A stretch of DNA of 64,000 nt, taken from positions 672,001 through 736,000 of the forward strand of contig JAVZJD010000001.1 in NCBI GenBank assembly GCA_038870975.1. Reading direction: 5' to 3'. Origin of the DNA: Candidatus Bathyarchaeia archaeon. Lineage in GTDB: Archaea > Thermoproteota > CALKCG01 > B24. The notes below the pieces were generated by a model. The model was not told the DNA's origin, did not search any database, and was given only the letters and a program-made list of their open reading frames with translations. Below, in pieces: positions 6,097-22,694 of this stretch (position 1 is its first letter; every line of letters begins with the position of its first letter). The position numbers and the translations under genes were made by a program.

Positions 6097-6239
6097 CTTC
6101 TTCTCAATAGAAACTATAAACGACCTCAGATATTTGTATTATTCTTCGCAGAACCGTTAATATAAAGGGGTCGGTTGTATTGCTAAATCAATATTTTTAA
6201 GCAGGTTTAAAATAAATGATTTCAAGTTGACTGCTGTTT

Positions 6240-7580
6240 ATGATTGTTGAAAGGGCTCTTAAACTCGCTTTTAAAGTCTTCCAACTTGAAGAAAGGGAGA
6301 ATATAGGGTTAAAGTCTGCCGCTAGTAGAGCTAGGGCCCTTCTATCCGAAGGAGACCGCCAGATTTTAGGGTTAGCACATCGTTTAGCATTTGAAACTAT
6401 AAAGTATAGACTGCTCATCGATTATATTCTTGGCGAATTCTACGGTGAGTCTTTAAAAAAGCTTTCAGAGTCTGCTAAATATGCTTCGCAAATTTTAACC
6501 TATGAATTTAAGATAAATGATACCCCGTCCATAAGAATCGACGCCTTCTTAAGAGCTTTGAAGAAAATCCTTAAAAGGGAGGAGTATGCTTCATGCATAC
6601 GTCTTTTCCATTGGCTTGAAGGGGTATCTTTAAATGAAATCCTCAAGGTGGAGGATCCATTAAAATACCTGTCGCTTTCATACTCAAGTCCGAAGTGGCT
6701 CGTAAAGTATTCCATTAGAAATTTCGGCCTTTTGAATGGTTTAAATCTTTTAAAAAGTTTAACTTCATCCCCTCCAACGTATTTCAGAGTTAATACTCTT
6801 AAAGCATCTGAAGACGATATTCTAAATCTACTTTCTGATGAAGGTTTTGAATTCGAGAAAGTTGAATGTTTAAATTATGTTTTCAAGGTTATTGAGTCTG
6901 AAAAACCTATAGTTGCATCTAAAGCCTATAAGGAGGGCTGGATATACATCCAGGATTTATCAAGCTGTTTGGCAGTAGAAGTGTCTGAGCCTAGACCTGG
7001 CTTTACAGTATTAGACGTATGTGCTGCCCCTGGCTCTAAAACTACTCATCTTGCTCAACTAATGGAAAATAGAGGCCGTATAATTTCAATCGAGCTTTCA
7101 AGAAGCCGTGTTAAAACATGGTTTAAAGAGGTCTCCAGAATGGGTGTTTCAATTGCACAAATGGTTTTAGCAGACGCCTCTAAAACCTATCCGCTGAAGC
7201 TTGAGGCAGACGTCGTCCTAATAGATCCACCTTGTTCAAATACTGGGGCTTTCCATAGAGATCCGTCATTAAAATGGAAGACATCACCTGAGCAAATTAG
7301 AAGATTTTCTGAGCTTCAATTATCCATGCTTCTCTCTTCTGTAGACCATGTTAAACCAAATGGGCACATTATATATACTACGTGTAGCATAATGGTCGAA
7401 GAAAATGAAATGGTTATTGAGAGGTTTCTTAATCTAAATTCCGACTTTGAACTGGAAAAAGTGAACTGTTCAATTGGAGATCCAGGTTTAAGAGGTTTTA
7501 AAGACTGTAAAAGGTTATATCCGTATAAACATAACTGTAACGGGTTTTTTATAGCTAAACTTGTAAAAAGAAACAGTTAA
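6240..7580 (+). CDS. RsmB/NOL1/NOP2/Sun family RNA m5C methyltransferase with NusB-like N-terminus
   Basis: IQDLSS, VLDVCAAPGSKT, DPPCS, YTTCS and GFFIAKL motifs. Confidence 0.93.
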   Translation: MIVERALKLAFKVFQLEERENIGLKSAASRARALLSEGDRQILGLAHRLAFETIKYRLLIDYILGEFYGESLKKLSESAKYASQILTYEFKINDTPSIRIDAFLRALKKILKREEYASCIRLFHWLEGVSLNEILKVEDPLKYLSLSYSSPKWLVKYSIRNFGLLNGLNLLKSLTSSPPTYFRVNTLKASEDDILNLLSDEGFEFEKVECLNYVFKVIESEKPIVASKAYKEGWIYIQDLSSCLAVEVSEPRPGFTVLDVCAAPGSKTTHLAQLMENRGRIISIELSRSRVKTWFKEVSRMGVSIAQMVLADASKTYPLKLEADVVLIDPPCSNTGAFHRDPSLKWKTSPEQIRRFSELQLSMLLSSVDHVKPNGHIIYTTCSIMVEENEMVIERFLNLNSDFELEKVNCSIGDPGLRGFKDCKRLYPYKHNCNGFFIAKLVKRNS

Positions 7581-7584
7581 ATCT
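7570..7584 (+). repeat. attL direct repeat GAAACAGTTAAATCT
   Basis: Identical to 20477-20491; includes the last codons and TAA of the methyltransferase gene; 22 bp from the integrase stop. Confidence 0.75.
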
Positions 7585-7606
7585 CTTTATTTTTTACTGA
7601 ATCTTA

Positions 7607-8875
7607 TTACTTCCGCTTTCTGAAGAGCATTATACCGTTGAAGGTTGTGACGTATTCAAAGCCTGCTTCGATGAGCTTTGAGGCCTCATCTATGGTTGAA
7701 GCCGTTTTACAGTAGAACTCGTCTTTAGGGGTTTGGAATAACGCTCTTTCTATGTTTATGTAGATCATCGTGTTCTGAATACTTTTATGACCGAGCAGCT
7801 CCTTGACGTAAACTATGTCTTTCGTCTTATGATACTCCATCGTTGCCTTCCAATGTCTAAAGGTGTGGAGCGTTATCCTCTTCAACCTCGGATTCTTAAG
7901 TTTTAGAGCGAGTGAATTCCTCTGACGCATAAAGCTGGATTCAATGGATTCACGCGTCATCGAAAAAACCCTTTCGCTGTCTCTTGGAAGGCTTTTCAGA
8001 ATTTCGACGAGTCTATCGCTTATCGGTAAGATCCGCCCCTTGCTCCTCTTCTCCGGCGTTATATTGACAATTTTACGCTCGAAGTCCACATCTGCCCACT
8101 TCACCATTAAAGCCTCTCCAACCCTTACTCCTGTCTCTTTTAGAAATTGAAGGAATGCAGCGGTCTTCCTTCCACATCTAGCTATCAGCATGTCTAACTC
8201 TTCTTCAGTCGGAATGAATGGGATCTTCTCAGTCTTCCCATATTTCGGCTTCTCCCAAGAGCCACTGTAGAATCTTACGAAATTGCCATATAGATTTGCA
8301 TAGTTCATTTTTGTGTCTTCAGATATATTCAGTTTGTTGATGAACTCTTTGACCGCTTCAGGATCATATATGTTCGCACCTTTTCTAATAAGCATTCTTA
8401 CGACTTCCACATTCTTTTTAACCGTTTCCTCTCTTCTCCCGTTCTTCAAAAGCCATAGAGCGAAGCCAGTTAGGACATCTTGGCTTACTGTGCCCCCCGC
8501 AGGCTTTTTTACTGTTTGAGGGGGCTTTTCCATCAGAGCCACGCATCCCATATCAGACCGGCTTAGGTCCTCATGTCCTTCATCTTTAACATAACCGTTG
8601 GGCCTATTTAAATCTGAGGTCTCATGGGTTTTCCCACGTCTCGAAGATGAAATTGTAAATCTATACCCGCAGTCCCTGCATAAGTAGCGTTGGATTTTAG
8701 AGCCGTCTACAAGCTTACGGAAGCCGTCTTTGAATAAACGTTTCGAGCCACATAATGGGCATTGAACCTCAGGTCCATTAGAGCCATAGGGTTTGCCCTG
8801 GACCGAGGCTGAGCAATCGTTTAAATCATCTCTATAGTCCTCCTGAGGTTCCGTAGAAGATGACAAGCATATCAC
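7607..8875 (-). CDS. Tyrosine recombinase/integrase with N-terminal Zn ribbon
   Basis: Catalytic set R(VGE), K, HTFRH, LLGH, Y all present; N-terminal CPLCGS...YLCRDCG; C-terminal LIEAGFEYV tail. Confidence 0.92.
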   Translation of the reverse strand: MICLSSSTEPQEDYRDDLNDCSASVQGKPYGSNGPEVQCPLCGSKRLFKDGFRKLVDGSKIQRYLCRDCGYRFTISSSRRGKTHETSDLNRPNGYVKDEGHEDLSRSDMGCVALMEKPPQTVKKPAGGTVSQDVLTGFALWLLKNGRREETVKKNVEVVRMLIRKGANIYDPEAVKEFINKLNISEDTKMNYANLYGNFVRFYSGSWEKPKYGKTEKIPFIPTEEELDMLIARCGRKTAAFLQFLKETGVRVGEALMVKWADVDFERKIVNITPEKRSKGRILPISDRLVEILKSLPRDSERVFSMTRESIESSFMRQRNSLALKLKNPRLKRITLHTFRHWKATMEYHKTKDIVYVKELLGHKSIQNTMIYINIERALFQTPKDEFYCKTASTIDEASKLIEAGFEYVTTFNGIMLFRKRK

Positions 8876-9234
8876 TTTCTCTTCTTGGAAAGCTCCAACT
8901 CTATTTCACGGATCAGCTCCTCATTCTCGAGCTTAGGAATAATGTCGAAAAGGGAGGCGATTACACCTCTACTACCATCACTAGTGTGGATCCAATACTC
9001 ATCGTTCCTAAGCATGGCAAGCAGAATCCTAGCCTGCGTCTCAAGGGCTTTCCTCTCAGCCTCCGAGCCTTTATCGAGCCTTGAGAGCGCTAAACTAGGG
9101 TCTCCGATCTCAACCACGGACTTCATAAAGTATTCTATCGCTTTAGATGGTTTAAAACTATGGCTTCTACAGGTTTCCTTGAACTTTTCCAAGAGGTATG
9201 GGTCGAACCTCCATCCAACCTGCTTCTGAGGCAT
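8872..9234 (-). CDS. Ribbon-helix-helix DNA-binding protein (possible excisionase/copy-control protein)
   Basis: N-terminal KQVGWRFDPYLLEKFKETC...PSKAIEYFM beta-helix-helix pattern; GGTGA SD; overlaps integrase start. Confidence 0.55.
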   Translation of the reverse strand: MPQKQVGWRFDPYLLEKFKETCRSHSFKPSKAIEYFMKSVVEIGDPSLALSRLDKGSEAERKALETQARILLAMLRNDEYWIHTSDGSRGVIASLFDIIPKLENEELIREIELELSKKRK

Positions 9235-9292
9235 AGATGATCACCTTGTTACCTTTCTGCTAACTTTTCTGATGACATAGTAGAGGGGGGAG

Positions 9293-9411
9293 GGGGTGGA
9301 AATCCACTCATCCTAGGGTCTCCCACCATAGAGGTCTTGGCTTTCACTATCTTCTTGGATGGGAAGACCTCACAACCTTCATATAGGTCGTGAGTCTTGG
9401 GCCCTAGGACG
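9293..9411 (-). ncRNA. Structured non-coding element (multi-stem RNA or ssDNA origin hairpin)
   Basis: Outer stem TCCTAGGG/CCCTAGGA enclosing two hairpins with a G-U pair favouring the minus strand; see finding. Confidence 0.45.
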
Positions 9412-9415
9412 CGAC

Positions 9416-10381
9416 TCATAGCTTCCCCCTCCCTTCGAGAAGTGCATTGAGCCGTGGTTTTGAGAAAGGCTTATAGCGTCTTTTTCTTGCGTGATCTATG
9501 TAGTATTGGGTCTTCCCCACGTTGTAATCCGGCTGGTTCATGAAGACCGCATGTATATCGTCATCTCCATAGCCAGCGTTAAGCATTTCGAATAGTATGG
9601 CAAGCCTTTCCTCATGTGATAGCTCTATCCCCTTTTTAGCCCGCTCTATGAGGAGCTGCACCTCTTTCCTAATACCTTTTGTTGGCTTAAATGAAGTGTG
9701 AGTTTGCCTTCGCCTCTCTTCTTCTCTGAAGATTTCCTCTATAATGGGTTTCAAAAGTGATGGATTCAATCCGTTCTTTTTATGAAAACTCAAGTCCACG
9801 TCTTCTGGACTTAATGCCTCCCCCCTCTCGTCGATTGGCTGGCAGGGTCTTTGTGTCTCTTCATGTATTGTATAAGGAAGGCGTGATATCCGCTTTACGT
9901 CGCCTAATGGATTCCGATCAACGGTCTTCAAATTCAGACCCATTAAGAGCTTTGACTGGAGGATCCTCATCGCTTCCTTGGCGTAATTTTCAAGTCCATT
10001 AATTGAAACGGGCTCACTGAAGAAGACGTAGACGTGGCATCCCTTGGAACCGCTCAGAGTTAGAAAGGGCTCTACGGAATAGAACTTCTTAAGGGTTCTT
10101 GCAAACCTCAACCCCTCCTCCACCGCTCTAGATGGATTTGTTGGGTCGTCAAAGTCGAAAAATAGCTTTTCCAAGTGGGATGGTGTATCGCGCCCTTTAA
10201 ACGGTTGAACGCTTAGAAAAACTGGAAGTCCGTTCTCTTCGTGTTCTTCAATGATGGGAGGCAGTTCGTCAAATTTAATGAAGCGCCTGTCCTTGAATGG
10301 GGAGAAGACCAAAACCTCCCTTCCGCTGAATCCTCCAAACCATTCACTCCAAAACTTCATCGGTCTATCCATCTTATCCAT
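9416..10381 (-). CDS. Archaeo-eukaryotic primase (PriS-like) fused to a PriL-CTD/PriX-like domain
   Basis: LFFDFD, SGSKGCHVY and RISRLPYTIH AEP motifs; C-terminal LSHEERLAIL...F..QPDYN..KTQYYIDH...YKP. Confidence 0.8.
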   Translation of the reverse strand: MDKMDRPMKFWSEWFGGFSGREVLVFSPFKDRRFIKFDELPPIIEEHEENGLPVFLSVQPFKGRDTPSHLEKLFFDFDDPTNPSRAVEEGLRFARTLKKFYSVEPFLTLSGSKGCHVYVFFSEPVSINGLENYAKEAMRILQSKLLMGLNLKTVDRNPLGDVKRISRLPYTIHEETQRPCQPIDERGEALSPEDVDLSFHKKNGLNPSLLKPIIEEIFREEERRRQTHTSFKPTKGIRKEVQLLIERAKKGIELSHEERLAILFEMLNAGYGDDDIHAVFMNQPDYNVGKTQYYIDHARKRRYKPFSKPRLNALLEGRGKL

Positions 10382-12765
10382 CCCTCCCTTGGTTCTATTA
10401 TGAAGCCCCGTTTCACTAGGAGGGTGAAGAACTCGTCAGCTGGACCGTTCAAAGCCTTGGATAATGTCTTCATGAACGGCTGTTTTTCACAGAAGCCGTC
10501 GTCTAGCTTCAATTCATCGTAAATTTTCTTCGCCATTTTAATCCTCTCTTCCATTGTAAGAGAAAAACCATCGTTCTTCTTTTTCTCCATTTCCTTTTTA
10601 ATCTTCGCATAGCAATTTTCACACATTAAAACTATTTTTCCATCCATATTCACCTTATTGTACGGAATCGCTTCATTTCCACATACTTCACACTCAGTCT
10701 TATCCTTCACAAATGCAAGTATTCTGAAGTCTTCACTCGGACGTAAGGATGAAAGCGTCATGTATGCTTCTGAAACCACTTCGAAGTCCAACTCAAACCT
10801 CAACCTTAACCTTCCATCTTTGTCGAATAGAGCCTTCATCCTACCCAACGGTTTGGAGGACTTCAGCAGAAAATCATAGTCCTTCTTCACTTCTTCCATA
10901 AGGGCTTTATTAGTTAAAATCTTAGAGGCCCACTCGTAAACCTCATCTGCATTGAATGACAGCTCCCTTCCACTCACGGACTTCTCCTTCAAAATTTTAA
11001 ACAACGCTAAACTGTAGGCTTCCCCATAGGGTTTAAGCTTCTCCACTATTTCGCTCAGTTTCTTAGAATTTTCCATGTAACCGGAAATAGGGGATTTTGT
11101 AACCGATGTAACATTGTAACCGATTTTTTGAGGTGTTTCAGTTGAAGTTTTCCATACTTCTTCAATGGAACTTAATGGAGAAATTTTCTCCTCTCCTTTT
11201 CTACTAAATGTTACATCGGTTACAGAGGTTACAAATGGAGAAGCCGCTAAGTTGAAGAAATACTTGTTATACATTTTCTCTATAACGGCGTTTTTAAACT
11301 TCCATGAACGCTTCACTTCACTGCCTTCCCGTTTTAACCCCCGTTCTCCTTTAAAAGCTTCCTTCAGCCTTCTACCAAGTTTCTGCCTAGAAACATCTTC
11401 ATCGAGAACATCTGAGATGATTTTACCGTCGTTGCTGACTTCACCGTTCACCACGCTAGTCAACTTCTCAAAGATTTCATCAAGCGTGAATTCCATAGAA
11501 TCACCAGATACTCCGTCCTTCTCTTCCTCCATCAGCTCATGAAGGGACTTGGCGATGTAGGCTTCAAGTGTTTCCAGTCTAGCCTTCCTCTGCGCTTGAA
11601 TGAAGTATCCTGCACATCTCCTGGCTTCTTCGATGCAACCTAGAACATTGGCTGCCTTCAAAAACGGATACCACAATTCCCGTTCTCTACCTATCAGGGG
11701 ATACTTATACTCTGAACCGTTTTCGCTGATGAGGACATATGGCTCTACATCGCTGAGACCTTCCTTGAACAGCTTCAACCTTAGCTTTAAAAGCGACAGC
11801 CTTATTTTTGAAGCCTCCATACGGTCGCTATCATCTAGGTCCTGCCTTTCAGGGATACCGTATACCATTGGAATTATGATGAACCGCTCTAGAAGCCCTT
11901 TCGCTTTAGAACCCATGGGAAGTTTCTCGGAAGCAGCCATTTTAAAGCAGAACGCGTTATAGTGGACCTGCCTCCTTTTACCCGTCTTTTCACTGATAAT
12001 GATTCGTGAAACTTTCGCCCCTCTTTGAAACCCAACCTTCCATATCCTACGCTTATCCTCCTTACTAATCAAGTCATCCGCCTCATCCTCCAATATGACG
12101 CCTTTAGTTGGCTTTTCTTCACTACCCAAGTATTCGTATAGATCTGCGGCCGGAAGGTCGACGGTCCACAGTGGTCTAAAGGCGATAAGATTAAGAACAC
12201 GGAGGGCCTTAGACTTGCCTGAGTTCGTGTCTCCTATGAGGAACACATAGTGGAGTGTCTCCATTAAGTCTTGGAGATATCCGAGGAACACATCGATTGC
12301 TAATAGTGTTAAGGCTTCAGGCTCCACCACGACCCTCTTAGCTATGAAGTCTTTGACGCTCCTATAAAGCCCCGCAGGATTCACATCCCCATCCCACTTC
12401 TCAGAGAGTCCGTATTGGATGTATGGTAGAGATTTTGGATTAATAGGGATGATCCTTACGGTCCTTCCACTCTCATCTTCTTCCATTATTTCTTTAACGA
12501 GTTGAAACTTTCCATCATACGTCAGAAATGCTGAAGCTCCACTTTTATCGATTACACTTTCATAAAGGGCTGCGTTGTGAATATAATTAACGGCTTCGAT
12601 GTTTTTCACTTTCTCTCCAATTTTCACTTCAGTTTCAATTTTTAGAATAGAGCCGCATTTTAAACAATGTAGGGCTTCAGAAGGATTAATCGCATAGCAT
12701 TTGGGACATTGGATTATTTCACTCCCTTGAGAAATACTTAAATTAGCCTTACTACTTTCATTCAT
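10357..12765 (-). CDS. Large P-loop ATPase/putative replicative helicase with Zn ribbons and C-terminal wHTH
   Basis: Walker A GDTNSGKS, Walker B VILEDE, LLERF arginine-finger-like motif; CxxC pairs at the N-terminus and near the C-terminus; overlaps the primase gene. Confidence 0.65.
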   Translation of the reverse strand: MNESSKANLSISQGSEIIQCPKCYAINPSEALHCLKCGSILKIETEVKIGEKVKNIEAVNYIHNAALYESVIDKSGASAFLTYDGKFQLVKEIMEEDESGRTVRIIPINPKSLPYIQYGLSEKWDGDVNPAGLYRSVKDFIAKRVVVEPEALTLLAIDVFLGYLQDLMETLHYVFLIGDTNSGKSKALRVLNLIAFRPLWTVDLPAADLYEYLGSEEKPTKGVILEDEADDLISKEDKRRIWKVGFQRGAKVSRIIISEKTGKRRQVHYNAFCFKMAASEKLPMGSKAKGLLERFIIIPMVYGIPERQDLDDSDRMEASKIRLSLLKLRLKLFKEGLSDVEPYVLISENGSEYKYPLIGRERELWYPFLKAANVLGCIEEARRCAGYFIQAQRKARLETLEAYIAKSLHELMEEEKDGVSGDSMEFTLDEIFEKLTSVVNGEVSNDGKIISDVLDEDVSRQKLGRRLKEAFKGERGLKREGSEVKRSWKFKNAVIEKMYNKYFFNLAASPFVTSVTDVTFSRKGEEKISPLSSIEEVWKTSTETPQKIGYNVTSVTKSPISGYMENSKKLSEIVEKLKPYGEAYSLALFKILKEKSVSGRELSFNADEVYEWASKILTNKALMEEVKKDYDFLLKSSKPLGRMKALFDKDGRLRLRFELDFEVVSEAYMTLSSLRPSEDFRILAFVKDKTECEVCGNEAIPYNKVNMDGKIVLMCENCYAKIKKEMEKKKNDGFSLTMEERIKMAKKIYDELKLDDGFCEKQPFMKTLSKALNGPADEFFTLLVKRGFIIEPREGWIRWIDR
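11098..11233. repeat. Two inverted arrays of three TGTAAC-core 8-9-mers (putative iterons/origin)
   Basis: TGTAACCGA TGTAACAT TGTAACCGA (11098-11123) and ATGTTACA TCGGTTACA GAGGTTACA (11208-11233); 18-bp perfect IR 11098-11115/11207-11224. Confidence 0.7.
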
Positions 12766-12793
12766 TTTAAGCGCCCCCTACTCTTTCTACGAA

Positions 12794-13006
12794 TTATGCC
12801 CCCTTCATTCTAAAAACACGCACGTATCCATACCTAGCCTCTTCCACAACACCTTCCTTCACGAGCCTCATTAAATGCTTCTTTGCCGTTATCGGCTGAA
12901 CCCTCGTTTTTTCGGCCACTTCCTTTAGGCTCAATCCTCGGACGCCAGCGGCCTTGATGGCGTCTATAATAGCCCTTCTCTTTTCTTCTAGAGGTTGCAA
13001 TCGCAT
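12794..13006 (-). CDS. Small winged HTH protein (Cro-like early regulator)
   Basis: LSLKEVAEKTRVQPITAKKHLMRLVKEGVV wHTH signature; GGTGA SD. Confidence 0.75.
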   Translation of the reverse strand: MRLQPLEEKRRAIIDAIKAAGVRGLSLKEVAEKTRVQPITAKKHLMRLVKEGVVEEARYGYVRVFRMKGA

Positions 13007-13093
13007 GTTCTCACCTTTTTTGAGGATGCATGACTATATATAAACTTTATTTGGTATATATTTTCTTCCGTAATTTTTCCATGCTTTTCTTTC

Positions 13094-13111
13094 CTTATCT
13101 TTTAAGATAAG
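13094..13111. promoter_or_regulatory. Palindromic operator between divergent regulators
   Basis: CTTATCTT-TT-AAGATAAG next to TATA-like TATATA boxes in the 13007-13144 spacer. Confidence 0.5.
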
Positions 13112-13144
13112 TATATATTCTGGTTTTTCTTACATAGAGAATAT

Positions 13145-14074
13145 ATGTCTTCGATTCCTGAGCTTTCAGAGCCAGAGGTCTCGCTCCTGATCTACCTATT
13201 CCTAAAGCCAAACTATCCATATGCGATTGCGAAGGACTTTAAGGAGGCACAGTTTAGGATTAAGAGCCTATGGCACCCAATGAAAATCTATCCCGTTATG
13301 GAGAGTTTAGCGGAAAAAGGCTTGGTAATATGGAAAGAAGGAGAAAGTGAGGGAAGACGGATGAGAATTTTCTATGTTAACATAGAGGCGATTTCGAAAA
13401 TTATTTCCAACATCGTTGAGAAGGTGACAGAAAAACATCAAGACTTTCCAAGCCCCCTTTTCGCAGAAAGAGGTCTTCTTTATCTTTACGACTTCTTAAG
13501 AGCAACTTCGCCCAACTGGGCAGAAAATCCCGTTCAAGTCCTCAAACGCTTCAAAAAGCTCGACTTCTTCACTTTTTTGCTCTTCATTGACATTCTCGCG
13601 AAAGAGATGATGACAGTCGCGGACCTCGCACAGCTACTCTTGGGGGACAACATCGTTTACATCCACGAAGGCTATAAAGGGCCCGTTGAGCCTTTAATAG
13701 AGCCAGAAGGAGAAGAGAGGGTTAAAAGTTATCTTTTTGGATGGGGTGCTGAGAACGTGGATTTAGAGCCCTATCTACGCCTTGTCAAAGAGTTCATAAA
13801 GTTTAAAATGACGAAAAAAATTAAGCCTGAACTCCTTGACTTTGAAGTTCTGAAGTCCAAGGTTGAAGAGACGTTTGTGCGAGCAATTGTAGGGGATGAG
13901 GGGGATAGGCCCCTTCTCTTAGGTTCAAAGCTACTTAAAAGCATAAAAATTAAGGAAGAGTTCAAAACGCCCGAAGAGTTCGAAATGGCGTTGAGGAGAA
14001 GAATGGTTGAAAATTTCATGCATTTTCGGAGAGAAAGGCATCTTCAAAAAAGAAACGAACAGAAAGAGGGCTAA
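13145..14074 (+). CDS. PadR-like wHTH transcriptional regulator with extended C-terminal domain
   Basis: PNYPYAIAK...KIYPVMESLAEKGLV...GRRMRIFYV wHTH pattern; divergent from the replication operon. Confidence 0.6.
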   Translation: MSSIPELSEPEVSLLIYLFLKPNYPYAIAKDFKEAQFRIKSLWHPMKIYPVMESLAEKGLVIWKEGESEGRRMRIFYVNIEAISKIISNIVEKVTEKHQDFPSPLFAERGLLYLYDFLRATSPNWAENPVQVLKRFKKLDFFTFLLFIDILAKEMMTVADLAQLLLGDNIVYIHEGYKGPVEPLIEPEGEERVKSYLFGWGAENVDLEPYLRLVKEFIKFKMTKKIKPELLDFEVLKSKVEETFVRAIVGDEGDRPLLLGSKLLKSIKIKEEFKTPEEFEMALRRRMVENFMHFRRERHLQKRNEQKEG

Positions 14075-14280
14075 TAGTATATTTTTGCTAATAAAAGTAT
14101 ATAATTTGAACAAGGTTTCTAAATCATTTTCTATGATGGGTTCGAAGGCCTGTTCTAGGCTAGCCCCTTCCTTAGTTTTTCATGATATATCGCTGATAGT
14201 AATGATCGCTTTGAACCCATGAACATAAGTAAGTTGAGCTTACATTATGTTGGAATGGAGGCGTATATGCGGACGTTTAA

Positions 14281-14553
14281 TTAATGGACGTTGCGTACGA
14301 TTTGCTTCGCTTCTTTTAACAGCCCCGCTACAAGTCTTCCCTTCTCGCTGAGCGAATAATATGTCCGTATGGGTTTTGATGCCACAACCCTGCGTTTGAT
14401 TAAGCCCTCTTCATCCAATTCTTTTAATATTATGGATAGTGTGCCTCTGCTTGGGATGAGTTTCAATAAGTCTGCATACCTAGCCTCGCCTCTATCGTAG
14501 AGGAACAATATGACTTTAACAGATGGAGTGTTTAACATGGATGAAATCTTCAA
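14281..14553 (-). CDS. HxlR-family wHTH regulator
   Basis: ARYADL..LIPSRGTLSIILKELDEEGLIKR...PIRTYYSLSEKG; real start may be ATG 14538. Confidence 0.8.
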   Translation of the reverse strand: MKISSMLNTPSVKVILFLYDRGEARYADLLKLIPSRGTLSIILKELDEEGLIKRRVVASKPIRTYYSLSEKGRLVAGLLKEAKQIVRNVH

Positions 14554-14616
14554 GTCCTTCTAAATTGAATGAACAACGTCTAACTCATAACATCATAACA
14601 CGGAAAATAGAGCATG

Positions 14617-14632
14617 GTTCATTAATATGAAC
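14617..14632. promoter_or_regulatory. Palindromic operator GTTCAT-TAAT-ATGAAC
   Basis: 6-bp IR between the divergent HxlR-like and nuclease genes; an extra ATGAAC half-site at ~14569. Confidence 0.4.
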
Positions 14633-14640
14633 TGTTAAAT

Positions 14641-15336
14641 ATGACTTCAAATTACTCTAAATTGAGTATGGTTGTTAAAGTCGTCAGCAAGTCTGAGGCG
14701 AAGTACGGTTTTATTCTTCTACCAAGGGAGGCTAGGCCCAGGACCCTTCCAACCAGAGTATCCGTGGTTGTTGGAGAAGTTAGACTCGGCGACGTACGGG
14801 TCGATAGGTATGCCCGCTTATGGCTTGGAAGATCAAAAATCTCTGAAACCCGTCTTAAAGAAGGCTTAAAGGTGGAGCTTGAGTGGACTTCACCTAGTGA
14901 GCTTAAGGTAACACTTTTAGAAGCCGTTACAACGCCATCTGAGAGCCCGGACCACAACGCTATTAGGGATATGCTCTACGAGATTGGAGAGTTGAAGGGT
15001 AAGTTAGCGTTGAAAGAGTATCCAATAGATAGCATGAGGATTGACATTGTATGGAAGAAGATAGAGAAAGCCAATCCATACGCAGTATTTGAAGTTCAAA
15101 TAGGTGGAAATTTCTTTGAAGCACTTACAAAACTCAAGCACGCTTGGGACCTTTGGAACGCTACACCTTTCCTAGTTACGACTGAGGAGTACGTGGATAG
15201 AGCCTTAAAACTAGTCGAGGGGTCGTTTCATGAGATAAAACACGTAATCAGAATATTGAACTGGGAGTCGGTGAGAGAATTATACAATATGTTGAAAAGA
15301 GTGAGAGAATTAGAGGCTGAAATGAGGCTACTGTGA
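14641..15336 (+). CDS. PD-(D/E)XK nuclease with N-terminal beta-barrel (B3/AbrB-like) domain; putative restriction/defence nuclease
   Basis: H..I..ML.EIG...EY....RIDIVW...AVFEVQ nuclease core; N-terminal VSKSEAKYGFILLP...RVDRYARLW beta-rich domain. Confidence 0.65.
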   Translation: MTSNYSKLSMVVKVVSKSEAKYGFILLPREARPRTLPTRVSVVVGEVRLGDVRVDRYARLWLGRSKISETRLKEGLKVELEWTSPSELKVTLLEAVTTPSESPDHNAIRDMLYEIGELKGKLALKEYPIDSMRIDIVWKKIEKANPYAVFEVQIGGNFFEALTKLKHAWDLWNATPFLVTTEEYVDRALKLVEGSFHEIKHVIRILNWESVRELYNMLKRVRELEAEMRLL

Positions 15337-15744
15337 TTTTTAATGAAAATGTCAAGCCTAATGAAATTGTGAAGAAAAATAGAATAAATCCACGGGAGCA
15401 CCAGTGATATGCCAATAATTTTATTTAGAGGAGAATCTAGAATACATTCTAGAGAGGGGCATGCCCATTAAATTTGCTGACGTTAGAGTGGATAATCAAT
15501 GAAATACGTGATGATTTATCAGCTCGAGCAGTCCACCTAGCTCCTTCAACTCCTTGAGCATCACGGTTGGTTGATATTGGCTTCCTTAAGCTCCCTCTAC
15601 TTCTCAAGAAGATTAGTAGTGGTTATAGGTGATTGGAGGAATGACCTTGAAAATTGGTGGAAATAACCTGTATAACATACCACGTAATTGATTCGACGGG
15701 CAAAAGTTAAAAAGGTCACCTGAATAAATATTAATAGTGATTCC

Positions 15745-16704
15745 ATGAGGCTTTTCTTTCCCCTAAATTTTAACATAGAAGTTCTGACTAAGGTCAAGCA
15801 TTTATATACGTGGGAGGACCATCAGAAAAATCCGATATTAGAGGTCACAGAAGCCAAAGATTGGGTTGCAGATCCAACAATAATAACTCCAGAGCAGAGC
15901 CCAGACGGATATTGGCATATGTTTTGCTGTGGAGGCTTAGGCTTGAAACATTACAGATCTACTGATGGATTAGAATGGAGTTTCTTGGAGATCCTAGACT
16001 TAGGTTACTCACCTTATGTCTTCGTAGAAGACAACAAATACTACCTATTTTACCAGAAGGGGTCTAAAAATGAGACTTACATAGTATGCCGTAAATCGGA
16101 AGACTTAAAAAATTGGAGCGACTTCAGCATTATACTCAGAGGGGATTTACTATGGGAGATGGGACTTAAAGGTGAACCATATGTTAGAAATCCATGCATT
16201 CTAAAACTATTCGATAAATACCTGCTCTACTACAGTGCGAGTTATACGCTTCTACCAGATACTGGTTACGATGAACCGTTATTCATAGGGTTGGCCGTAT
16301 CGACGGAAGGAATAACTGGTCCTTATATTAAAAATCCCGAGCCAATAGTTAAACCGGACTTTTTAGACCCGTGGAGGAATCTCGGAGCAGGAGCTATGAA
16401 GGTGTATTATGACTATAGGCTTAATCTACTACTGGGATTTGAAAATGGTATATACATAGGCTTAGATGGACATACACATTCGGCTTTACACCTATTAGCA
16501 TCGTTTGACGGGGTAAATTGGATGGACTCTCCATATAACCCCATTTTAAAGCCAGAAGGCTACGGGTGGAAGAGTGCATTTGTCTATCAATGTGACGTTA
16601 AAAGGGTTGAAGACAAGCTATACCTTTATTACAACGCTAGAGATGGATGGAAAGATGCTACCGAGAGAATAGGATTAGCCTTATGCAGAATTAAAGACGT
16701 CTGA
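15745..16704 (+). CDS. Five-bladed beta-propeller glycoside hydrolase (GH43/GH32/GH130-like clan)
   Basis: NPIL..WVADPTI, S.DGLEW and SEDLKNW Asp-boxes, RNPCI, LYYNA...ERIGLA. Confidence 0.8.
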   Translation: MRLFFPLNFNIEVLTKVKHLYTWEDHQKNPILEVTEAKDWVADPTIITPEQSPDGYWHMFCCGGLGLKHYRSTDGLEWSFLEILDLGYSPYVFVEDNKYYLFYQKGSKNETYIVCRKSEDLKNWSDFSIILRGDLLWEMGLKGEPYVRNPCILKLFDKYLLYYSASYTLLPDTGYDEPLFIGLAVSTEGITGPYIKNPEPIVKPDFLDPWRNLGAGAMKVYYDYRLNLLLGFENGIYIGLDGHTHSALHLLASFDGVNWMDSPYNPILKPEGYGWKSAFVYQCDVKRVEDKLYLYYNARDGWKDATERIGLALCRIKDV

Positions 16705-16786
16705 AAACTATTTTAAATTTTTTAGTTAGTTCTCTTATGGAATTGAGAAAGCTTTCTGATGAGGCTTTACTATAGAGGAAAGAAGT

Positions 16787-17917
16787 ATGGAGAAATCGAA
16801 ATTTCAAAGCATAACGAATTTGAGAGAACGCATTGGACTTAATTTTATTAGACCTGATGTTAACCGTCCGGGAAATCATGACTTTATAAATAGCGGAGTT
16901 TTTCTTGTGTCTCAATTTAAACAATTAGGAGTTAAGTGGAATAGACTTGCCTTCTCTTGGGTTTTAATACAACCGAAGAAAGGGGAATATAATTGGACAC
17001 CATATGATCAAATCGTTGACGTATGCAGAAAAGAAGGAATTAATATATTGGCTACAATAGGCGGTCATTTCGATAATCCTTCGGTTCCAACATGGGCAGG
17101 GAATTCTCTTGCAGAAGTTGTTAGAGTTAATCCGAAGGCATTAGAAGGCTTTGTTGAGTCCTTGGCTCAACGATATAGAAAGTATATCCATCATTGGGAA
17201 GTTTTTAACGAACCAGCAAGTTTTCATAAGGGCTTAACAGTGATGGAATATATAGAGAAAATCTTGAAGCCAAGCTATAATATCATTAAATCTATAGATT
17301 CCAAGTCAAAGGTTCTGCCATGCTCTTATCGACATTTACCGGCTATTGGCAACAAAGAAGACTTTTGGAATGTTGCAAGAGGATACTATGACATTCAAAA
17401 CATCCACATATACGTAGACTGGGGAAAATTCCGAAAACAATCTATTGCAGATAAAGAAATTGAAGAAGCCAAAAGATTCCGAGAACTGATGGTGAAGTAT
17501 GGTGAAGAAGATAAGAATTTTTGGATAACAGAAATAGGATGGTGGGGTACCGCCTCAATCACAGGCAGTATCTATGAATTCTATAAGGAGGACCCAATTT
17601 CTCACGTTGAACTTAAGCCCTTCTATACTGGAAGGGAGATTCTTGAACATCCAATAGTTAATCGAGAAGATAGTTTTCGTGCTGAATGGATGAAGGATCT
17701 GTTTCCACGCATATTATCCGTTCCAGGTTGTGAGAAAGTGTTTTTGTGGGCATCAATGGATGAGTTTGAAGGTGGTTATGATCCAAATACATTATACGGT
17801 AGAAGCATGGAAAACACAACTGTCCGTCAAGTCGATTTATGGGGTATTATAGCTGGAGATAGAACTTGGCGAAAAAGTGCTCTTGCTCTTTCCGTAATTC
17901 TAAAAAAATCTCCTTAG
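16787..17917 (+). CDS. Clan GH-A TIM-barrel glycoside hydrolase (GH39/GH5/GH42-like)
   Basis: LGVKWNRLAFSW..IQPKKGEYNW, WEVFNEP (acid/base), FWITEIGW (nucleophile). Confidence 0.8.
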   Translation: MEKSKFQSITNLRERIGLNFIRPDVNRPGNHDFINSGVFLVSQFKQLGVKWNRLAFSWVLIQPKKGEYNWTPYDQIVDVCRKEGINILATIGGHFDNPSVPTWAGNSLAEVVRVNPKALEGFVESLAQRYRKYIHHWEVFNEPASFHKGLTVMEYIEKILKPSYNIIKSIDSKSKVLPCSYRHLPAIGNKEDFWNVARGYYDIQNIHIYVDWGKFRKQSIADKEIEEAKRFRELMVKYGEEDKNFWITEIGWWGTASITGSIYEFYKEDPISHVELKPFYTGREILEHPIVNREDSFRAEWMKDLFPRILSVPGCEKVFLWASMDEFEGGYDPNTLYGRSMENTTVRQVDLWGIIAGDRTWRKSALALSVILKKSP

Positions 17918-18072
17918 AAATACAACCAAAAAATTTATATATTGGAGGGGAAAAGACGAAAATAGAGCGAAGGCTAGAATGAATTAGAACACTGCCTAAT
18001 GGTTTCAAAATACTCCTTGAGACTTTAAACTTACTCCTTAGGAGTATAGATGAAAAACTTTTAGAAAAAAGT

Positions 18073-20082
18073 TTAGCGTGGATATGCTATGAATGCTCCA
18101 AAACCAGCTATTAACGTGTTTAATGCTGTTCCGAGCATGAATCCGCCAGCAAATGGTACAGTCTTCTCCTCGTAGAGTTTGCTTCCTCCGATTCTTAATA
18201 TAAGCCATTTTATAATGCTACAGATGAGAGCCGCCATCCACATTCCCCCGATACTAGCTTCCCAAGCCCAAGAGATTATAAACACATACGGATCTGGTAT
18301 CCACAGGAATCTAGCACGTACGAGGCTTACAATGACCATGAGAATGAAACCACTACCTATCCACGGAGTGAGTTCAATAATAGGGCCTGGTGCAGGTTTA
18401 TTCCACATATCGTTAATTCTAGACTCAATATTACCTACCCAAATGCAACCAGTTACGCCTTTTCCATATACGCCTGGAAGTAGAATCATCATTATACATG
18501 CAACGAATATAGCGGTAATTAAGGATGTGAAAGTTATCTTAATTACGTTTTTAGGGTGTACATTCATTAATTTAGCCATCTTGTATGATCCAACAGTTGC
18601 ATAGACGCTACTACCCCAAGGGCTACTAAGAAGATGCGAAACCGGCTCATATATGAAGAATAGGGCTAGACTTGTATCTGCAGACGTGGCTGGTAGCATA
18701 TATTCTGTTGGCCAGAGAAGCGCCTTTGCAACGAATGGGCCCATGGTACCAGAGCCTCCAATTGTAGCTCCCACCCGGGCCCATGGTTGAATAATTGTAT
18801 ACCAGACTACAACGCCAGTAAGTGTAAGAACAAACGATGTCCAAGGACTTATACCAGTTAGTGTAAAGTGAACTACCATAAGGATAAATGACACGGTAAA
18901 TATCATCCAAGCTGATCTATAGGACATAGGTTCTTCAGCTTCAATCTTCGGATCTTTAACAGTTCCCAAAGCCATCTTCAACGTCATGACTATGTGGTGT
19001 CTTTCGTAGAAAATCGCCATGACAAATATTCCCAGCATAGAACCACTGACAAGAGTAAAAGCTGAAATCGGAGGCCCTGTAAACGGGGTATTCTCTCCGC
19101 ACCAGCTCTTTCCACAGAAGCCCAAGTCAATATATCCAGTATAATATCCTAAAGTACAAGCGATCGCTGTTGCAACTTGAAAAATTATACCCCAGAAAAC
19201 TACGCTGAACAGTGAGTGTAATGGTGCTAGGAGTAGTAGTGCATATAATGGTGTGAGCTTTGAAAGTCCATAGTTCCATGTTGTACCCGGGATTGTTATC
19301 CAGTGAGTAACTGAACCACCGCAAGTGTTTATACGTATTGAGTACACGTCTGGGAACCATGGGAAGAATAAAATGCCAGCTCTGATAAGCTCTAAGCCAA
19401 GCCCAGCTATGAAGCCTAAGATGAAGGCCCATCTTCCAGCCCACTTGGGATTACCAACTTCTCCCGCTCCTATGATTGCACTATATGCTACCGTTATATG
19501 AGGATACGGTAGCATTTCAACATCCATCCATTGGCGCCTAAAAATGCTGGCTAAACCTACGCTTATACCAGCGAAGAAGGCAAACATAAAAAACCACCAT
19601 ACCATAACTGGAATAAACTGACCCCAAGGTATGGCGGTCGCATTTCCAGCACCTCTAATTAGCACTTCCGCCGCTTCCTTCGGAGGTGATACAAACTCAG
19701 GTACATATGCCATGATAGATTCCGCTGTGCCCAAACGTGCTGTCATCAAAGCATATATTTCTCTCCAAGGTGAATTCGTACTTGCAAATGCTGATGCTGA
19801 TAAAGCAGTAGTGTATAAAAGGATAAGCATTCCTGACGTCAGATGTTTCCTGACAGAGGATATGCGCATAAGCAAAGCAATTATCAGAGACATTACAAAT
19901 GGCATACCTAGCAAATCAACTCCAAAAGTCGATATCAAAGTCCCTGCATTCATATTGCATGAGAATGGAAACGGCAGGAAGAAGATGAACAAGTTCCCCA
20001 GAACCGTTAGAATAGCTGTTATAATAACAGCCAACGTTATTGACAGCGCGGTTATTCTTAGTTCTTCATATCCACTAGCCGT
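18073..20082 (-). CDS. OPT-like/DUF6785 polytopic membrane transporter
   Basis: Many TM segments; FRRQWMDVEMLPYP, EEPMSYR, RIGGSKLYEEKTVPFAGG; frame extends from TTG 20034 up to an SD-preceded ACG at 20082. Confidence 0.7.
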   Translation of the reverse strand, partial: TASGYEELRITALSITLAVIITAILTVLGNLFIFFLPFPFSCNMNAGTLISTFGVDLLGMPFVMSLIIALLMRISSVRKHLTSGMLILLYTTALSASAFASTNSPWREIYALMTARLGTAESIMAYVPEFVSPPKEAAEVLIRGAGNATAIPWGQFIPVMVWWFFMFAFFAGISVGLASIFRRQWMDVEMLPYPHITVAYSAIIGAGEVGNPKWAGRWAFILGFIAGLGLELIRAGILFFPWFPDVYSIRINTCGGSVTHWITIPGTTWNYGLSKLTPLYALLLLAPLHSLFSVVFWGIIFQVATAIACTLGYYTGYIDLGFCGKSWCGENTPFTGPPISAFTLVSGSMLGIFVMAIFYERHHIVMTLKMALGTVKDPKIEAEEPMSYRSAWMIFTVSFILMVVHFTLTGISPWTSFVLTLTGVVVWYTIIQPWARVGATIGGSGTMGPFVAKALLWPTEYMLPATSADTSLALFFIYEPVSHLLSSPWGSSVYATVGSYKMAKLMNVHPKNVIKITFTSLITAIFVACIMMILLPGVYGKGVTGCIWVGNIESRINDMWNKPAPGPIIELTPWIGSGFILMVIVSLVRARFLWIPDPYVFIISWAWEASIGGMWMAALICSIIKWLILRIGGSKLYEEKTVPFAGGFMLGTALNTLIAGFGAFIAYPR

Positions 20083-20476
20083 TTTCCCACCGAATCTGAA
20101 TTTATGCTGTATATATATATGCTTTTCGCCTCTTTTTTCAAGTTGTCGTACTGTGACATGTCGGAGGCTGTTTTCATCGAATTGAGAAGTCTAGCCGAGG
20201 CTGTTCACATGATTTTCAACTCTTATATCGATCTAAGCCACGTCTCATCCAGAGAAGATCGTGAATGTTTCAGTCAAGGGTAGTTGCATTTAAGCTCTGT
20301 CAGTAGCCCCTCTATGCGTTTAAGCCTCTCCCTAAGCCCATCCTTCAAATACCTTCTAAACGTCATGTATCCTATCAAAACATACAATGGAAGTAAAACT
20401 TCAAAATAGATAGCTTCTAAAGAAGCTTGAAAAGAAAAAATAGGGGATTTTGCGGGGGAAGTCGCCAACTATTGGG

Positions 20477-20491
20477 GAAACAGTTAAATCT
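20477..20491 (+). repeat. attR direct repeat GAAACAGTTAAATCT
   Basis: Identical to 7570-7584; intergenic, 31 bp upstream of the ATG of the next backbone gene. Confidence 0.75.
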
Positions 20492-20522
20492 AATATCTGC
20501 TTTCAAAATACTTTTGACCTTT

Positions 20523-21623
20523 ATGGATAAGATTAAAGTCGGTATAATAGGATGCGGTGGTATTGCTTCAAGTACACATGTTCCAAATTATCTTAAACTG
20601 CCGGATGTATCCGTGGTTGCATGTGCTGACATCGATGTATCTAGAGCAAGAGATTTCGCGAAAAAGTTCAACATTCCGGCTTTCTATGGAGATTACAGAG
20701 ACATGCTTGATAAGGAAAGCCTAGATGCCGTAAGTGTGTGTACACCTAATGTAGCACATAAAGGACCTTCTATAGCGGCTATGAAAGCCGGAGCGCATGT
20801 ACTTGTTGAAAAGCCTATGGCTGCCTCACTGAAGGATGCCGTCGAAATGTGGGAGACCTCTAAAAAGACAAATCGAATACTCATAGTCGGTTTTCAAACG
20901 AGGTTCAGCCCGTCCATAGTAATGCTTAAGGATATCGTTGCATCTGGTGAATTAGGTTCTGTATACTACGCTAGGTCTCTACATTTAAGACGTTGGGGTA
21001 TTCCGCCAAGCCCTACTTTTATAGACGCAAAGTTATCTGGAGGAGGGGCTCTACTCGACATAGGATGTTACGCAGTAGATACCGCCATGTACGTATTAGG
21101 TTTCCCAGAGCCTAAAACAGTGACAGGTGTTACATATGCTAAATTCGGTAAGAATAAGAAGTATGCTGAAATGGGCTGCTGGGGTTCCAAGTGGAAGCCT
21201 GAGGATTTCCAAGTTGAAGATATGGCTATAGGCTTTATCAGATTTGAAAACGGGCTTTCTATGATCGTAGAGACCAGTTGGGCTAGCTATATAAGTAGCT
21301 CGGGGGTCTTTAATGTAGTACTTCTGGGCGATGAAGGAGGGGCTCAAATGGACCCGCCTGAGATCTACAGGGGTTTAGAGCTTGAAGAATTGAAGAAGAG
21401 AGCATATGGTCCTCTTAATTTAGCAGCTAAACCTATTGATCACTTTCCAAATGTGGACATATACTATATGCGCATAGCAAACTTCGTAGAGTCTATAAAA
21501 CTTGGGAAGCCTTTATTCTCACCGGCTGATGAGGGTATAATTGTTCAGGCAATCTTAGACGCAATATACAAGTCTGCAAACTTAGGCAGAGAAGTCGAAG
21601 TTGAAAAGCCGTGGAGGAGTTAA
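20523..21623 (+). CDS. Gfo/Idh/MocA family oxidoreductase
   Basis: KVGIIGCGGIA, HVLVEKPMA, GGGALLDIGCY; start moved to ATG 20523 (MDKIKVG). Confidence 0.92.
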   Translation: MDKIKVGIIGCGGIASSTHVPNYLKLPDVSVVACADIDVSRARDFAKKFNIPAFYGDYRDMLDKESLDAVSVCTPNVAHKGPSIAAMKAGAHVLVEKPMAASLKDAVEMWETSKKTNRILIVGFQTRFSPSIVMLKDIVASGELGSVYYARSLHLRRWGIPPSPTFIDAKLSGGGALLDIGCYAVDTAMYVLGFPEPKTVTGVTYAKFGKNKKYAEMGCWGSKWKPEDFQVEDMAIGFIRFENGLSMIVETSWASYISSSGVFNVVLLGDEGGAQMDPPEIYRGLELEELKKRAYGPLNLAAKPIDHFPNVDIYYMRIANFVESIKLGKPLFSPADEGIIVQAILDAIYKSANLGREVEVEKPWRS

Positions 21624-21641
21624 AAACGCATACATTTTCTT

Positions 21642-22577
21642 CTAATTTTTCTTTGAGAGTAAGGCTACCCTACTAGATCTAAAGAAATCTTTAATAGCAT
21701 ATCCTGTTTTATCAGCTAATTTCTCGGCAAATTCTAAAACGTCTTCATAACTTGGCATAGCCGTTTCTGGGAGTCTTTTTATTGATTCTCCTACCCTCAT
21801 ATAAGCTTTGGGCTCTATGTAGTCTGGCTCGGCTCTCTCTATGAGTTTAGCATACCCATCTACATTGTGCATATTGTATCCTTTAACCAAGGTTATCCTC
21901 ACCACTTTACGGCAGTTGAAGCTTCTCATAAGCTCCAGGCTCTTCATCTGTGCCTCCCACCCGTTTTGTTTAATGGGCACTTCAAGTCTGTTGAAGGTTT
22001 CTTCATCTGGTGCGCATACGCTTATGTACAGGTTTGTCGGTTCAACCCATAGTTTTTCAAGTCCTTCTGGATATGTGCCCTTCGTAACGAGGAAAGTCTT
22101 CATCCCCCGTTTTCTAGCTACTTCTATGAACTCCGGTAAATACGGATATAGAACACTTTCACCAATAAGGCTAATAGCGATATTCGTAGGATTTTGCGCT
22201 TCTTCCCATTTTCTCCGCTCAACTTTAATATTTCCCTTGTAGCCTGTCAGAAGAATCCGCTGTGCTTCCACTAAACCGTTTAGTAGCCATTCAGGCTCAT
22301 CGGGTTTTACGTCCATCTCAGCTCCAAGAAATATTTTGAAGCTCCTCCAACAGTAGAGACATCTATTAAGACACCAGAATAACGCTAAACTACACTGGAG
22401 ACATCTATGGCTTTCAATTCCATACCACTTCTGCTTATAACAATATCTTCCCTGCGTGAGGCTTTTCTTAGTCCATTCGCATATTTTAACACCACTGTGG
22501 CTTCCAACGATTCTATAGCCTTGCTTTAAAAGATTTCTCTTAAAGGATTCTAAGGTATTTTCTAGGCTTGTCATCAA
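21642..22577 (-). CDS. taw1: 4-demethylwyosine synthase, radical SAM
   Basis: HSGVKICEWTKKS, CYKQKWYGIESHRC, CLNRCLYCWR, ISLIGE, EPKAYM. Confidence 0.93.
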   Translation of the reverse strand: MMTSLENTLESFKRNLLKQGYRIVGSHSGVKICEWTKKSLTQGRYCYKQKWYGIESHRCLQCSLALFWCLNRCLYCWRSFKIFLGAEMDVKPDEPEWLLNGLVEAQRILLTGYKGNIKVERRKWEEAQNPTNIAISLIGESVLYPYLPEFIEVARKRGMKTFLVTKGTYPEGLEKLWVEPTNLYISVCAPDEETFNRLEVPIKQNGWEAQMKSLELMRSFNCRKVVRITLVKGYNMHNVDGYAKLIERAEPDYIEPKAYMRVGESIKRLPETAMPSYEDVLEFAEKLADKTGYAIKDFFRSSRVALLSKKN

Positions 22578-22694
22578 ATCATTATCGGTATTTTCAACAA
22601 AATAAAGTTACTTCAACATATGAAAGTAACTTTACGGTTTGTGTTTTTGCAATGGATTTAGTTTTCATAATGGGAAACGTTGGAGAGTTCTTTT

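Follow-up and report, generated by a model that had tools for sequence, protein, structure and literature searches.

Within a 64,000-nucleotide (nt) stretch of the genome of a hot-spring Candidatus Bathyarchaeia archaeon (assembly GCA_038870975.1, contig JAVZJD010000001.1, positions 672,001 to 736,000; referred to here as the window and numbered from its first base) the 3' end of an rsmB-like RNA m5C methyltransferase gene is separated from a Gfo/Idh/MocA-family oxidoreductase gene by an insertion of 12,907 bp. The insertion is a discrete unit which includes the genes lying at 15.7–20 kb, and it is present in some strains and absent from others of one species. It is most probably a plasmid-like ("cryptic") integrated element which was inserted by its own tyrosine integrase at a 15-bp core, GAAACAGTTAAATCT, at the end of the methyltransferase gene.

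Empty sites delimit the insertion

Two exact copies of the core were present in the window, at 7570–7584 and 20477–20491, and the similarity between the two places was confined to these 15 bases with none extending to either side. The last three codons and the stop (7578–7580) of rsmB lie inside the left copy, and the convergent integrase gene ends (stop at 7607–7609) 22 nt beyond it. The right copy lies between genes, with 31 nt separating it from the ATG (20523) of the Gfo/Idh/MocA gene downstream. This geometry had been described in an earlier note made from the DNA letters, and its positions were confirmed here. No further exact copy of the core was found in the 1.85-Mb two-contig genome, in which two copies with one mismatch occur elsewhere. 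In a profile search the target gene product matched PF22458 (34.8 bits) and, weakly, NusB in addition to PF01189 (183.6 bits), and by its catalytic and N-terminal domains it is predicted to be an RNA m5C methyltransferase of the RsmB/NOP2/Sun type.

Exact 15-mer repeats are not rare by themselves, so the repeat alone proves little. The earlier note had conceded as much and rested its argument on position, and a second exact 15-mer pair (11085 and 20438) was indeed found in the same 16 kb. It is the independent empty sites described below which lift the core repeat above chance. Two other ways of reading the core were tried and rejected. An island made of two elements split by an internal att-like site was dropped, as no copy of the core with three or fewer mismatches was found inside 7585–20476. 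Mimicry of a tRNA T-loop by the core was also set aside, the likeness being weak and the motif repeated in relatives being the acceptor 3' end.

For comparison within the genus, 40 related genomes were queried with the methyltransferase and approximately 18 kb downstream of each close orthologue was extracted. Two other species of the genus (G002 and G005), in which rsmB was 80–81% and the Gfo gene 90–91% identical, had the Gfo gene 34–38 nt after rsmB. The junction in these genomes contained a single, identical 15-mer followed by the sequence which follows the right copy in the window, that is the predicted chromosomal attachment site (attB), and none of the genes of 7.6–20.5 kb was present there. 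Both junctions match the claim of the earlier note that removal of the insertion would leave the methyltransferase intact and about 35 bp upstream of the Gfo gene.

For comparison within the species, hot-spring metagenomes from four different studies supplied Logan contigs, which were aligned to window positions 5000–23000. In two independent studies a contig, one of 39.4 kb (depth 26) and the other of 24.8 kb (depth 54), joined 7569 to 20477, and each skipped exactly 12,907 bases with 15 bases which fitted either side of the joint. The flanks of these contigs had 7–11 differences from the window in about 2.5 kb (approximately 99.7% identical). Flank contigs from the third study (depth approximately 51) stopped at 7584 and started at 20477, a loose end behind 7584 continued as in attB, and the element was represented by pieces with a depth of approximately 6. 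Depth in the probable source run was 19.6 for the element vs 20–21 for the flanks, that is no coverage step of the kind which the earlier note had proposed to look for, these being crude figures, one per contig.

The empty site which had been predicted, with rsmB directly followed by the oxidoreductase gene, thus exists in G002, in G005 and in conspecific strains, and the predicted attB flanks were found in contigs of both conspecific strains and congeners. It had been recognised in advance that relatives retaining the 15.7–20 kb genes without the integrase, or an empty site with another junction, would speak against the proposal; the cargo was found to be absent from the empty sites. Because empty sites are found both in congeners and in conspecific strains, we take the empty site to be the ancestral state and the insertion to be a discrete, polymorphic unit.

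The same data bear on whether the repeat could be due to chance or be the target-site duplication of a transposon or casposon, or whether the segment could have arrived by homologous recombination. Exact 15-mers do recur in the region, as the second pair shows, and casposons generate duplications of about this length (PMC6563490). However, the skip in the empty-site contigs was bounded exactly by the repeat, and other species already have one copy of the core in their empty sites, as recombination between att sites predicts and unlike a duplication arising from a staggered cut. No terminal inverted repeats pairing the two ends were found, nor was a Cas1 or transposase. We give practically no credence to these explanations.

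Two further observations were made at this locus. A second public assembly (GCA_038882875.1, JAVZNJ010000002.1:70311-91276) also has this element, its primase identical, at the corresponding position and with the gene order unchanged beside rsmB and a PolB gene; it is possibly from the same sampling series and was excluded from the independent evidence. In two other genomes of the genus the rsmB–Gfo junction is altered. In G001 (L045:2040-4535) it holds a 2.5-kb insert with GNAT-like and nucleoside-phosphorylase-like genes and no integrase, possibly bounded by a 10-nt repeat, CAGAATGTTT, and in G003 (L047:17475-17575) approximately 57 extra bases are present. Another stop terminates rsmB in each of the two, and of a diverged core the last eight bases are retained approximately 35 nt before the Gfo ATG. 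Such altered junctions might be left over from an earlier insertion at this site.

The integrase and the targets of its family

The integrase (Table 1) has its zinc ribbon at about residues 39–72. Residues R251, K276, H337xxR340, H363 and Y372 were invariant in 17 family members, indicating a complete catalytic set. The gene is one open frame which aligned end to end with its relatives, and since att lies outside the gene it is not split on integration. It is the sole intact copy of the family in the genome. The 120-aa protein packed against its start had no family match in Pfam, NCBIfam or PHROGs, and is a candidate directionality factor or regulator.

Archaeal tyrosine integrases of the pNOB8 type are non-partitioning, while genes of the SSV1 type are split on integration. 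Because its gene is intact with att outside, the window integrase behaves as a non-partitioning (pNOB8-type) enzyme, judged by gene layout alone. Like that type it has an intact integrase gene, att just outside the 3' end and a short core shared with the 3' end of the host gene. It differs in the use of 15 bp at a protein-coding gene and in its N-terminal zinc ribbon, whereas the classical pNOB8-type examples have tRNA targets and att sites of 29–69 bp (PMC6563490).

In a search with one genome per species, 401 relatives of the integrase were found whose record titles name Bathyarchaeia, indicating that the family is very common there, and the loci of the best 80 were surveyed. At approximately 40 of the 80 a convergent tRNA gene (Cys, Leu, Ala, Arg and others) had its 3' end 25–60 nt from the integrase stop, and allowing for tRNA introns added three further tRNA-associated loci. 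The arrangement in the window is equivalent, rsmB standing where the tRNA gene would be. At the tRNA loci the tRNA 3' end recurs as a degenerate copy between the tRNA and the integrase stop, approximately 11 nt from the tRNA. Because these tRNA-targeting relatives show the same layout, the degenerate repeat ACTGAATCT in the window is, by analogy, a candidate arm or second integrase-binding site.

Protein-coding genes took the place of the tRNA at other loci. The gene of UPF0147, a conserved protein of small size, was tail to tail with the integrase in five scanned loci, with 17–20 nt from stop to stop, and a sixth possible case (L071), outside the scan, had a like-sized open reading frame (ORF). 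One locus had RtcB tail to tail with a family integrase, and a GNAT acetyltransferase gene adjoined the closest full-length congeneric integrase (59% identity). On JAAKEZ010000014.1 (L057 and L058) two integrase copies 17.5 kb apart share an identical 5.2-kb integrase-proximal part. The identity runs 34 nt past the integrase stop, through the stop and last codons of UPF0147, after which one copy alone continues into the gene. This arrangement is a tandem insertion at a protein-coding att and independently confirms the 3' end of UPF0147 as a target.

The integrases were placed in a quick maximum-likelihood tree of 76 sequences, with SH-aLRT support only and the careful search unfinished, in which target type followed the clades. 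The window integrase paired with that of L050 (support 97), then with the GNAT-associated one (90) and then with L084 (85), and this branch had the UPF0147 clade (100) as its neighbour. This part of the tree has 13 rows, none of them adjoining a tRNA gene; the support uniting all 13 was weak (63). The earlier note had suggested looking for close integrase homologues at rsmB 3' ends, and none of the 80 best relatives was at such a location. One tRNA-Gly-associated locus (L067) was considered as a case and discarded, since its RsmB/F-like gene merely lies behind the tRNA, which was taken as coincidence. No convincing motif shared with the window core was found beside the integrases of G005:C39, G001:C5 and L084.

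Among 68 integrated elements of Thaumarchaeota, 39 target tRNA genes, 15 intergenic sites and 14 the 3'-distal parts of genes which encode proteins, and earlier reports of non-tRNA targets in archaea are cited there (Krupovic et al. 2019, PMC6563490). The statement of the earlier note that archaeal elements with tyrosine integrases mostly target tRNA genes agrees with these counts. Its proposal of a protein-coding attB holds for the rsmB 3' end used here, but the novelty it attached to this was overstated, since such sites are used by 14 of the 68 Thaumarchaeota elements and recur in the same integrase family; they are not a new category.

A bacterial parallel is found in the lambdoid phage 21 and e14, which integrate at the 3' end of icd and rebuild it. 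In those systems, as proposed here, attP (the attachment site of the element) carries a copy of the gene end and the product is unchanged. They differ in having bacterial hosts and an unrelated integrase lineage, and in being viruses.

Class of the element, its replication genes and its cargo

The features of the insertion and its flanks are collected in Table 1. Scans of the ORFs of the element with Pfam, NCBIfam, PHROGs and PADLOC revealed no recognisable capsid, portal, terminase, packaging ATPase, conjugation ATPase, Cas1 or transposase. VirB4/VirD4-type ATPases and a mating apparatus were likewise not among the family matches, and the sole polytopic membrane protein is the DUF6785 protein. 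With an integrase and none of these signature genes, the insertion would be classed by its gene content as a cryptic integrated element; the hallmarks of a provirus, of a casposon or other transposon, and of an integrative-conjugative element were not found.

Table 1. Features of the 12,907-bp insertion and of the adjoining host genes (window positions)
Feature	Positions	Strand	Basis
Target gene, predicted RsmB/NOP2-type RNA m5C methyltransferase, 446 aa	6240–7580	+	PF01189 183.6 bits; orthologues 77–81% identity in four congeneric genomes
attL core, 15 bp	7570–7584		repeat; joint of empty-site contigs falls within these bases
Degenerate repeat of the 3' part of the core, ACTGAATCT	7596–7604		11 nt past core, just before integrase stop
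Tyrosine integrase, ~420 aa, N-terminal zinc ribbon	7607–8875	-	PF00589 78 bits; NF040815; zinc-ribbon domain
120-aa protein packed against integrase start	8872–9234	-	58% identical homologue in same position by closest congeneric integrase
56-aa ORF	9249–9419	-	gene call in a public annotation; no family match
Archaeo-eukaryotic primase-polymerase (AEP), PriL-CTD-like tail	9416–10381	-	NF040561 1.2e-10; PriL models ~1e-8; PF21686 1.8e-4; PADLOC PrimPol 2.8e-8
802-aa zinc-ribbon / P-loop NTPase / second zinc-ribbon protein	10357–12765	-	motifs; Atlas neighbours
Winged-helix DNA-binding protein, 70 aa	12794–13006	-	PF13412 25.6 bits; ArsR-type match
309-aa protein, weak N-terminal PadR-like winged helix	13145–14074	+	PF03551 1.1e-3, below cut-off; Atlas leads only
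HxlR-type winged-helix regulator, 90 aa	14281–14553	-	PF01638 45.8 bits
231-aa protein	14641–15336	+	no family match (Pfam, NCBIfam, PHROGs, PADLOC)
GH43-like five-bladed-propeller glycoside hydrolase	15745–16704	+	PF04616 34.1 bits
TIM-barrel (clan GH-A-like) glycoside hydrolase	16787–17917	+	PF02449, PF00331, PF00232, PF00150 all above cut-offs
DUF6785/DUF6784 polytopic membrane protein	18073–20034	-	PF20581 93 bits; PF20580 38.7 bits; ~12 hydrophobic segments
Right arm, incl. 64-aa ORF (20274–20468, -)	20073–20460		88% identical copy lies at the end of a second, decayed element of this genome
attR core, 15 bp	20477–20491		repeat; empty-site contigs
Downstream host gene, Gfo/Idh/MocA-family oxidoreductase	20523–21623	+	35 nt after rsmB stop in empty site; orthologues 88–91% identity directly after rsmB in G002, G005, G003

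The gene content resembles that of the cryptic integrated elements (CIE) of Thaumarchaeota, which also carry an integrase between flanking att sites, lack virion and conjugation genes, include an AEP primase and a superfamily 3 (SF3) helicase among their replication modules, and have winged-helix or ribbon-helix-helix regulators together with auxiliary metabolic cargo (PMC6563490). Those elements are mostly below 20 kb (median 17 kb) with short att sites of 8–25 bp, some of only 8–13 bp, and their insertion sites were verified by empty sites in relatives (PMC6563490). The element described here differs in its Bathyarchaeia host, in having its primase and NTPase encoded by separate, overlapping genes, and in its carbohydrate-active cargo, where that of the CIE is nitrogen- or copper-related (PMC6563490). 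An rsmB-type methyltransferase was not among the targets which were read in that survey (PMC6563490).

The 802-aa protein, whose gene overlaps that of the primase, has a Walker A motif at 178 and a Walker B motif at 223 with SF3-like spacing. Its Atlas neighbours were DUF3631 and primase-helicase clusters of phages and plasmids; no match was found among PDB sequences and no Pfam domain besides the zinc ribbons. Relatives of this NTPase were linked to relatives of the integrase or of the primase at five loci (L072, L110, L103, L070 and L149). From its motifs and neighbours it is a putative replicative helicase-initiator. The earlier note had described a self-replicating, non-viral element. The non-viral part agrees with the absence of any recognised capsid or conjugation gene, and a primase and an NTPase are present; self-replication would follow from these genes and is inferred, not shown.

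Several observations weigh against an integrated plasmid-like element. The replication proteins were assigned from weak profile matches and motifs. Five ORFs (120, 56, 309, 231 and 64 aa) are without assignment, and a virion protein could hide among them. No transfer machinery was recognised which would account for the spread of the element. No excised circle or attP joint was found among the contigs of four runs, though assembled contigs drop rare variants. Finally, the equal depth of element and flanks in the probable source sample means that nearly all cells there carry the element in its integrated form. An exact 26-mer of the attP junction was absent from public metagenome contigs, which lose rare forms, and a looser 19-mer gave 25 matches, none of which blastn and tblastn linked to the element. 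These negatives carry no information on activity.

The unassigned ORFs and the lack of conjugation genes to explain transfer would also suit a provirus or a virus satellite, having either an unrecognisable virion protein or packaging by a helper virus. Small archaeal viruses often have capsid proteins which escape profile searches, and distant relatives of the primase (26–29% identity) were found on IMG/VR contigs. By the same viral contig collection, however, the large NTPase had no relative, and neither PHROGs nor Pfam nor NCBIfam gave a match to a capsid, portal, terminase or packaging ATPase. The membrane proteins are limited to the cellular-type DUF6785 protein and the 64-aa ORF. We therefore regard a viral origin as unlikely.

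The failure to see attP, and the equal depth of element and chromosome (1:1) in the probable sample of origin, could be taken to mean that the element is a fixed and immobile relic, one old insertion segregating among strains, and the many decayed integrase fragments of the same family in the genome point the same way. A relic is difficult to reconcile with perfect att repeats, with a full-length integrase having all catalytic residues, and with the low frequency of the element beside a dominant empty site in another spring. Moreover, occupied and empty alleles were found on approximately 99.7% identical flanks, indicating a recent event. This explanation we hold to be very unlikely, and a plasmid-like element with its own integrase remains the reading we prefer.

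As to the other ORFs of the core module, a single-sequence AlphaFold model of the 231-aa protein had a mean pLDDT of 35 and was unusable. The GC content of the core module is 0.429 vs 0.38–0.40 for the flanks. An 18-bp perfect inverted repeat (11098–11115 and 11207–11224, with 91 nt between the arms) lies inside the gene of the 802-aa NTPase. In G002 a small separate contig of 3 kb (G002:C29, L149) carries relatives of both the primase (51% identity) and the NTPase (42–47%), as expected for a related element which was not assembled into the chromosome.

The cargo at the right of the element consists of two glycoside hydrolase genes and the gene for the DUF6785/DUF6784 protein, possibly a sugar transporter, and the element closes with a 0.4-kb arm which is non-coding or holds a small ORF. 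A search of five congeneric genomes (72–92% complete) gave no copy of the GH43-like gene; a homologue of 44% identity is present in the sister genus. In two runs low-depth relatives of 8.0–15.4 kb were present with no trace of 15.8–20.0 kb. In one run (X2) the cargo pieces (16165–20118) were more than 99% identical to the window, whereas the replication-gene pieces (8760–12279) were 93–95% identical. Because the backbone was seen without the cargo and the identities of cargo and replication genes differ, the cargo looks separable from the backbone, and the same cargo on a diverged backbone suggests an exchange of modules between related elements.

Traces of related elements occur elsewhere in the genome. 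The copy of the right arm (88% identical to window 20073–20460) is at C1:522862-523251 (L131:1501-1890), where, as in the window, it is preceded by the 64-aa ORF (here a homologue of 81% identity) and by a DUF6785 gene (a paralogue of 27% identity); the similarity ends approximately 17 nt before the expected position of the core. Integrase fragments lie near this copy, at C1:489.7, 499.6 and 506.8 kb, and the region C1:487-523 kb looks like a graveyard of related elements. The genome contains 13 fragments of the integrase family, nearly all of them C-terminal ends, so that it is the att-proximal 3' part of the gene which persists, and some beside tRNA genes (tRNA-Ala, tRNA-Pro), and one of these (C1:738443-738637, L135) is 2.4 kb past the window end. 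There are 21 DUF6785 paralogues in the 1.85 Mb, of which four or five (L134, L139, L143, L144) have integrase remnants or the arm copy at a distance of a few kb or less, where approximately one would be expected by chance on a rough count. At C2:742.8-745.4 kb a tRNA-Ala gene is followed by an integrase remnant and then by a DUF6785 gene. Both G002 and G005 gave 18–20 matches to the integrase family.

Proposed mechanism and significance

The backbone of the element comprises three parts, an integration module (integrase and 120-aa protein), a replication module (primase-polymerase and NTPase) and the winged-helix regulators, to which the separable cargo is added. In the mechanism we propose, the integrase would recombine the 15-bp core on a circular copy (attP) with the identical core on the chromosome (attB). 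With the core identical on both partners, attL rebuilds the end of rsmB unchanged, and attR keeps the TATA-like part of the core together with the native 31 nt before the Gfo gene, so that no host gene is damaged. The 120-aa partner of the integrase may act as a directionality factor or regulator. We infer a circular attP form and its autonomous replication after excision, in which the primase-polymerase and the SF3-like NTPase would copy the circle.

In each of the five genomes of the genus, G001 and G003 included, the Gfo ATG is preceded at approximately 35 nt by the last eight bases of the core, TTAAATCT. This placement fits a putative B recognition element (BRE)/TATA element of the downstream gene. 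Since TTAAATCT is kept where rsmB ends elsewhere, the constancy of the target is perhaps due to the promoter as much as to the gene end. A broader scheme can be put forward, with rather low confidence, in which the non-tRNA branch of the family moved from tRNA ends to junctions between a stop codon and the promoter of the next gene, the core being the rsmB stop region plus a BRE/TATA element, and in which elements of this family would be a main vehicle by which strains gain genes for the uptake and degradation of carbohydrates, including the expansion of DUF6785.

In our search of the literature we found descriptions of viruses and proviruses of Bathyarchaeia and no survey of plasmid-like integrated elements. 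The analysis adds empty sites with exact joints, both in conspecific strains and in other species, and shows the cargo to be part of the mobile unit; it also adds the family context and a UPF0147 target verified by tandem copies. These results do not overturn current understanding; they are a clean example from a little-explored host class and not a surprise.

The exact ends of the element, together with natural carrier and non-carrier strains across several hot springs, make it a cleanly delimited example, and its intact integrase with a 15-bp target is suited to in vitro testing. The compact replicon of primase and NTPase might be a starting point for a vector. With at least one integrase branch having left tRNA genes for protein-coding ends, the family is well suited to the study of how the specificity of tyrosine integrases changes. 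Bathyarchaeia are abundant and mostly uncultured, and a cargo of glycoside hydrolases and a membrane protein which moves between strains bears on differences in polymer use among these archaea.

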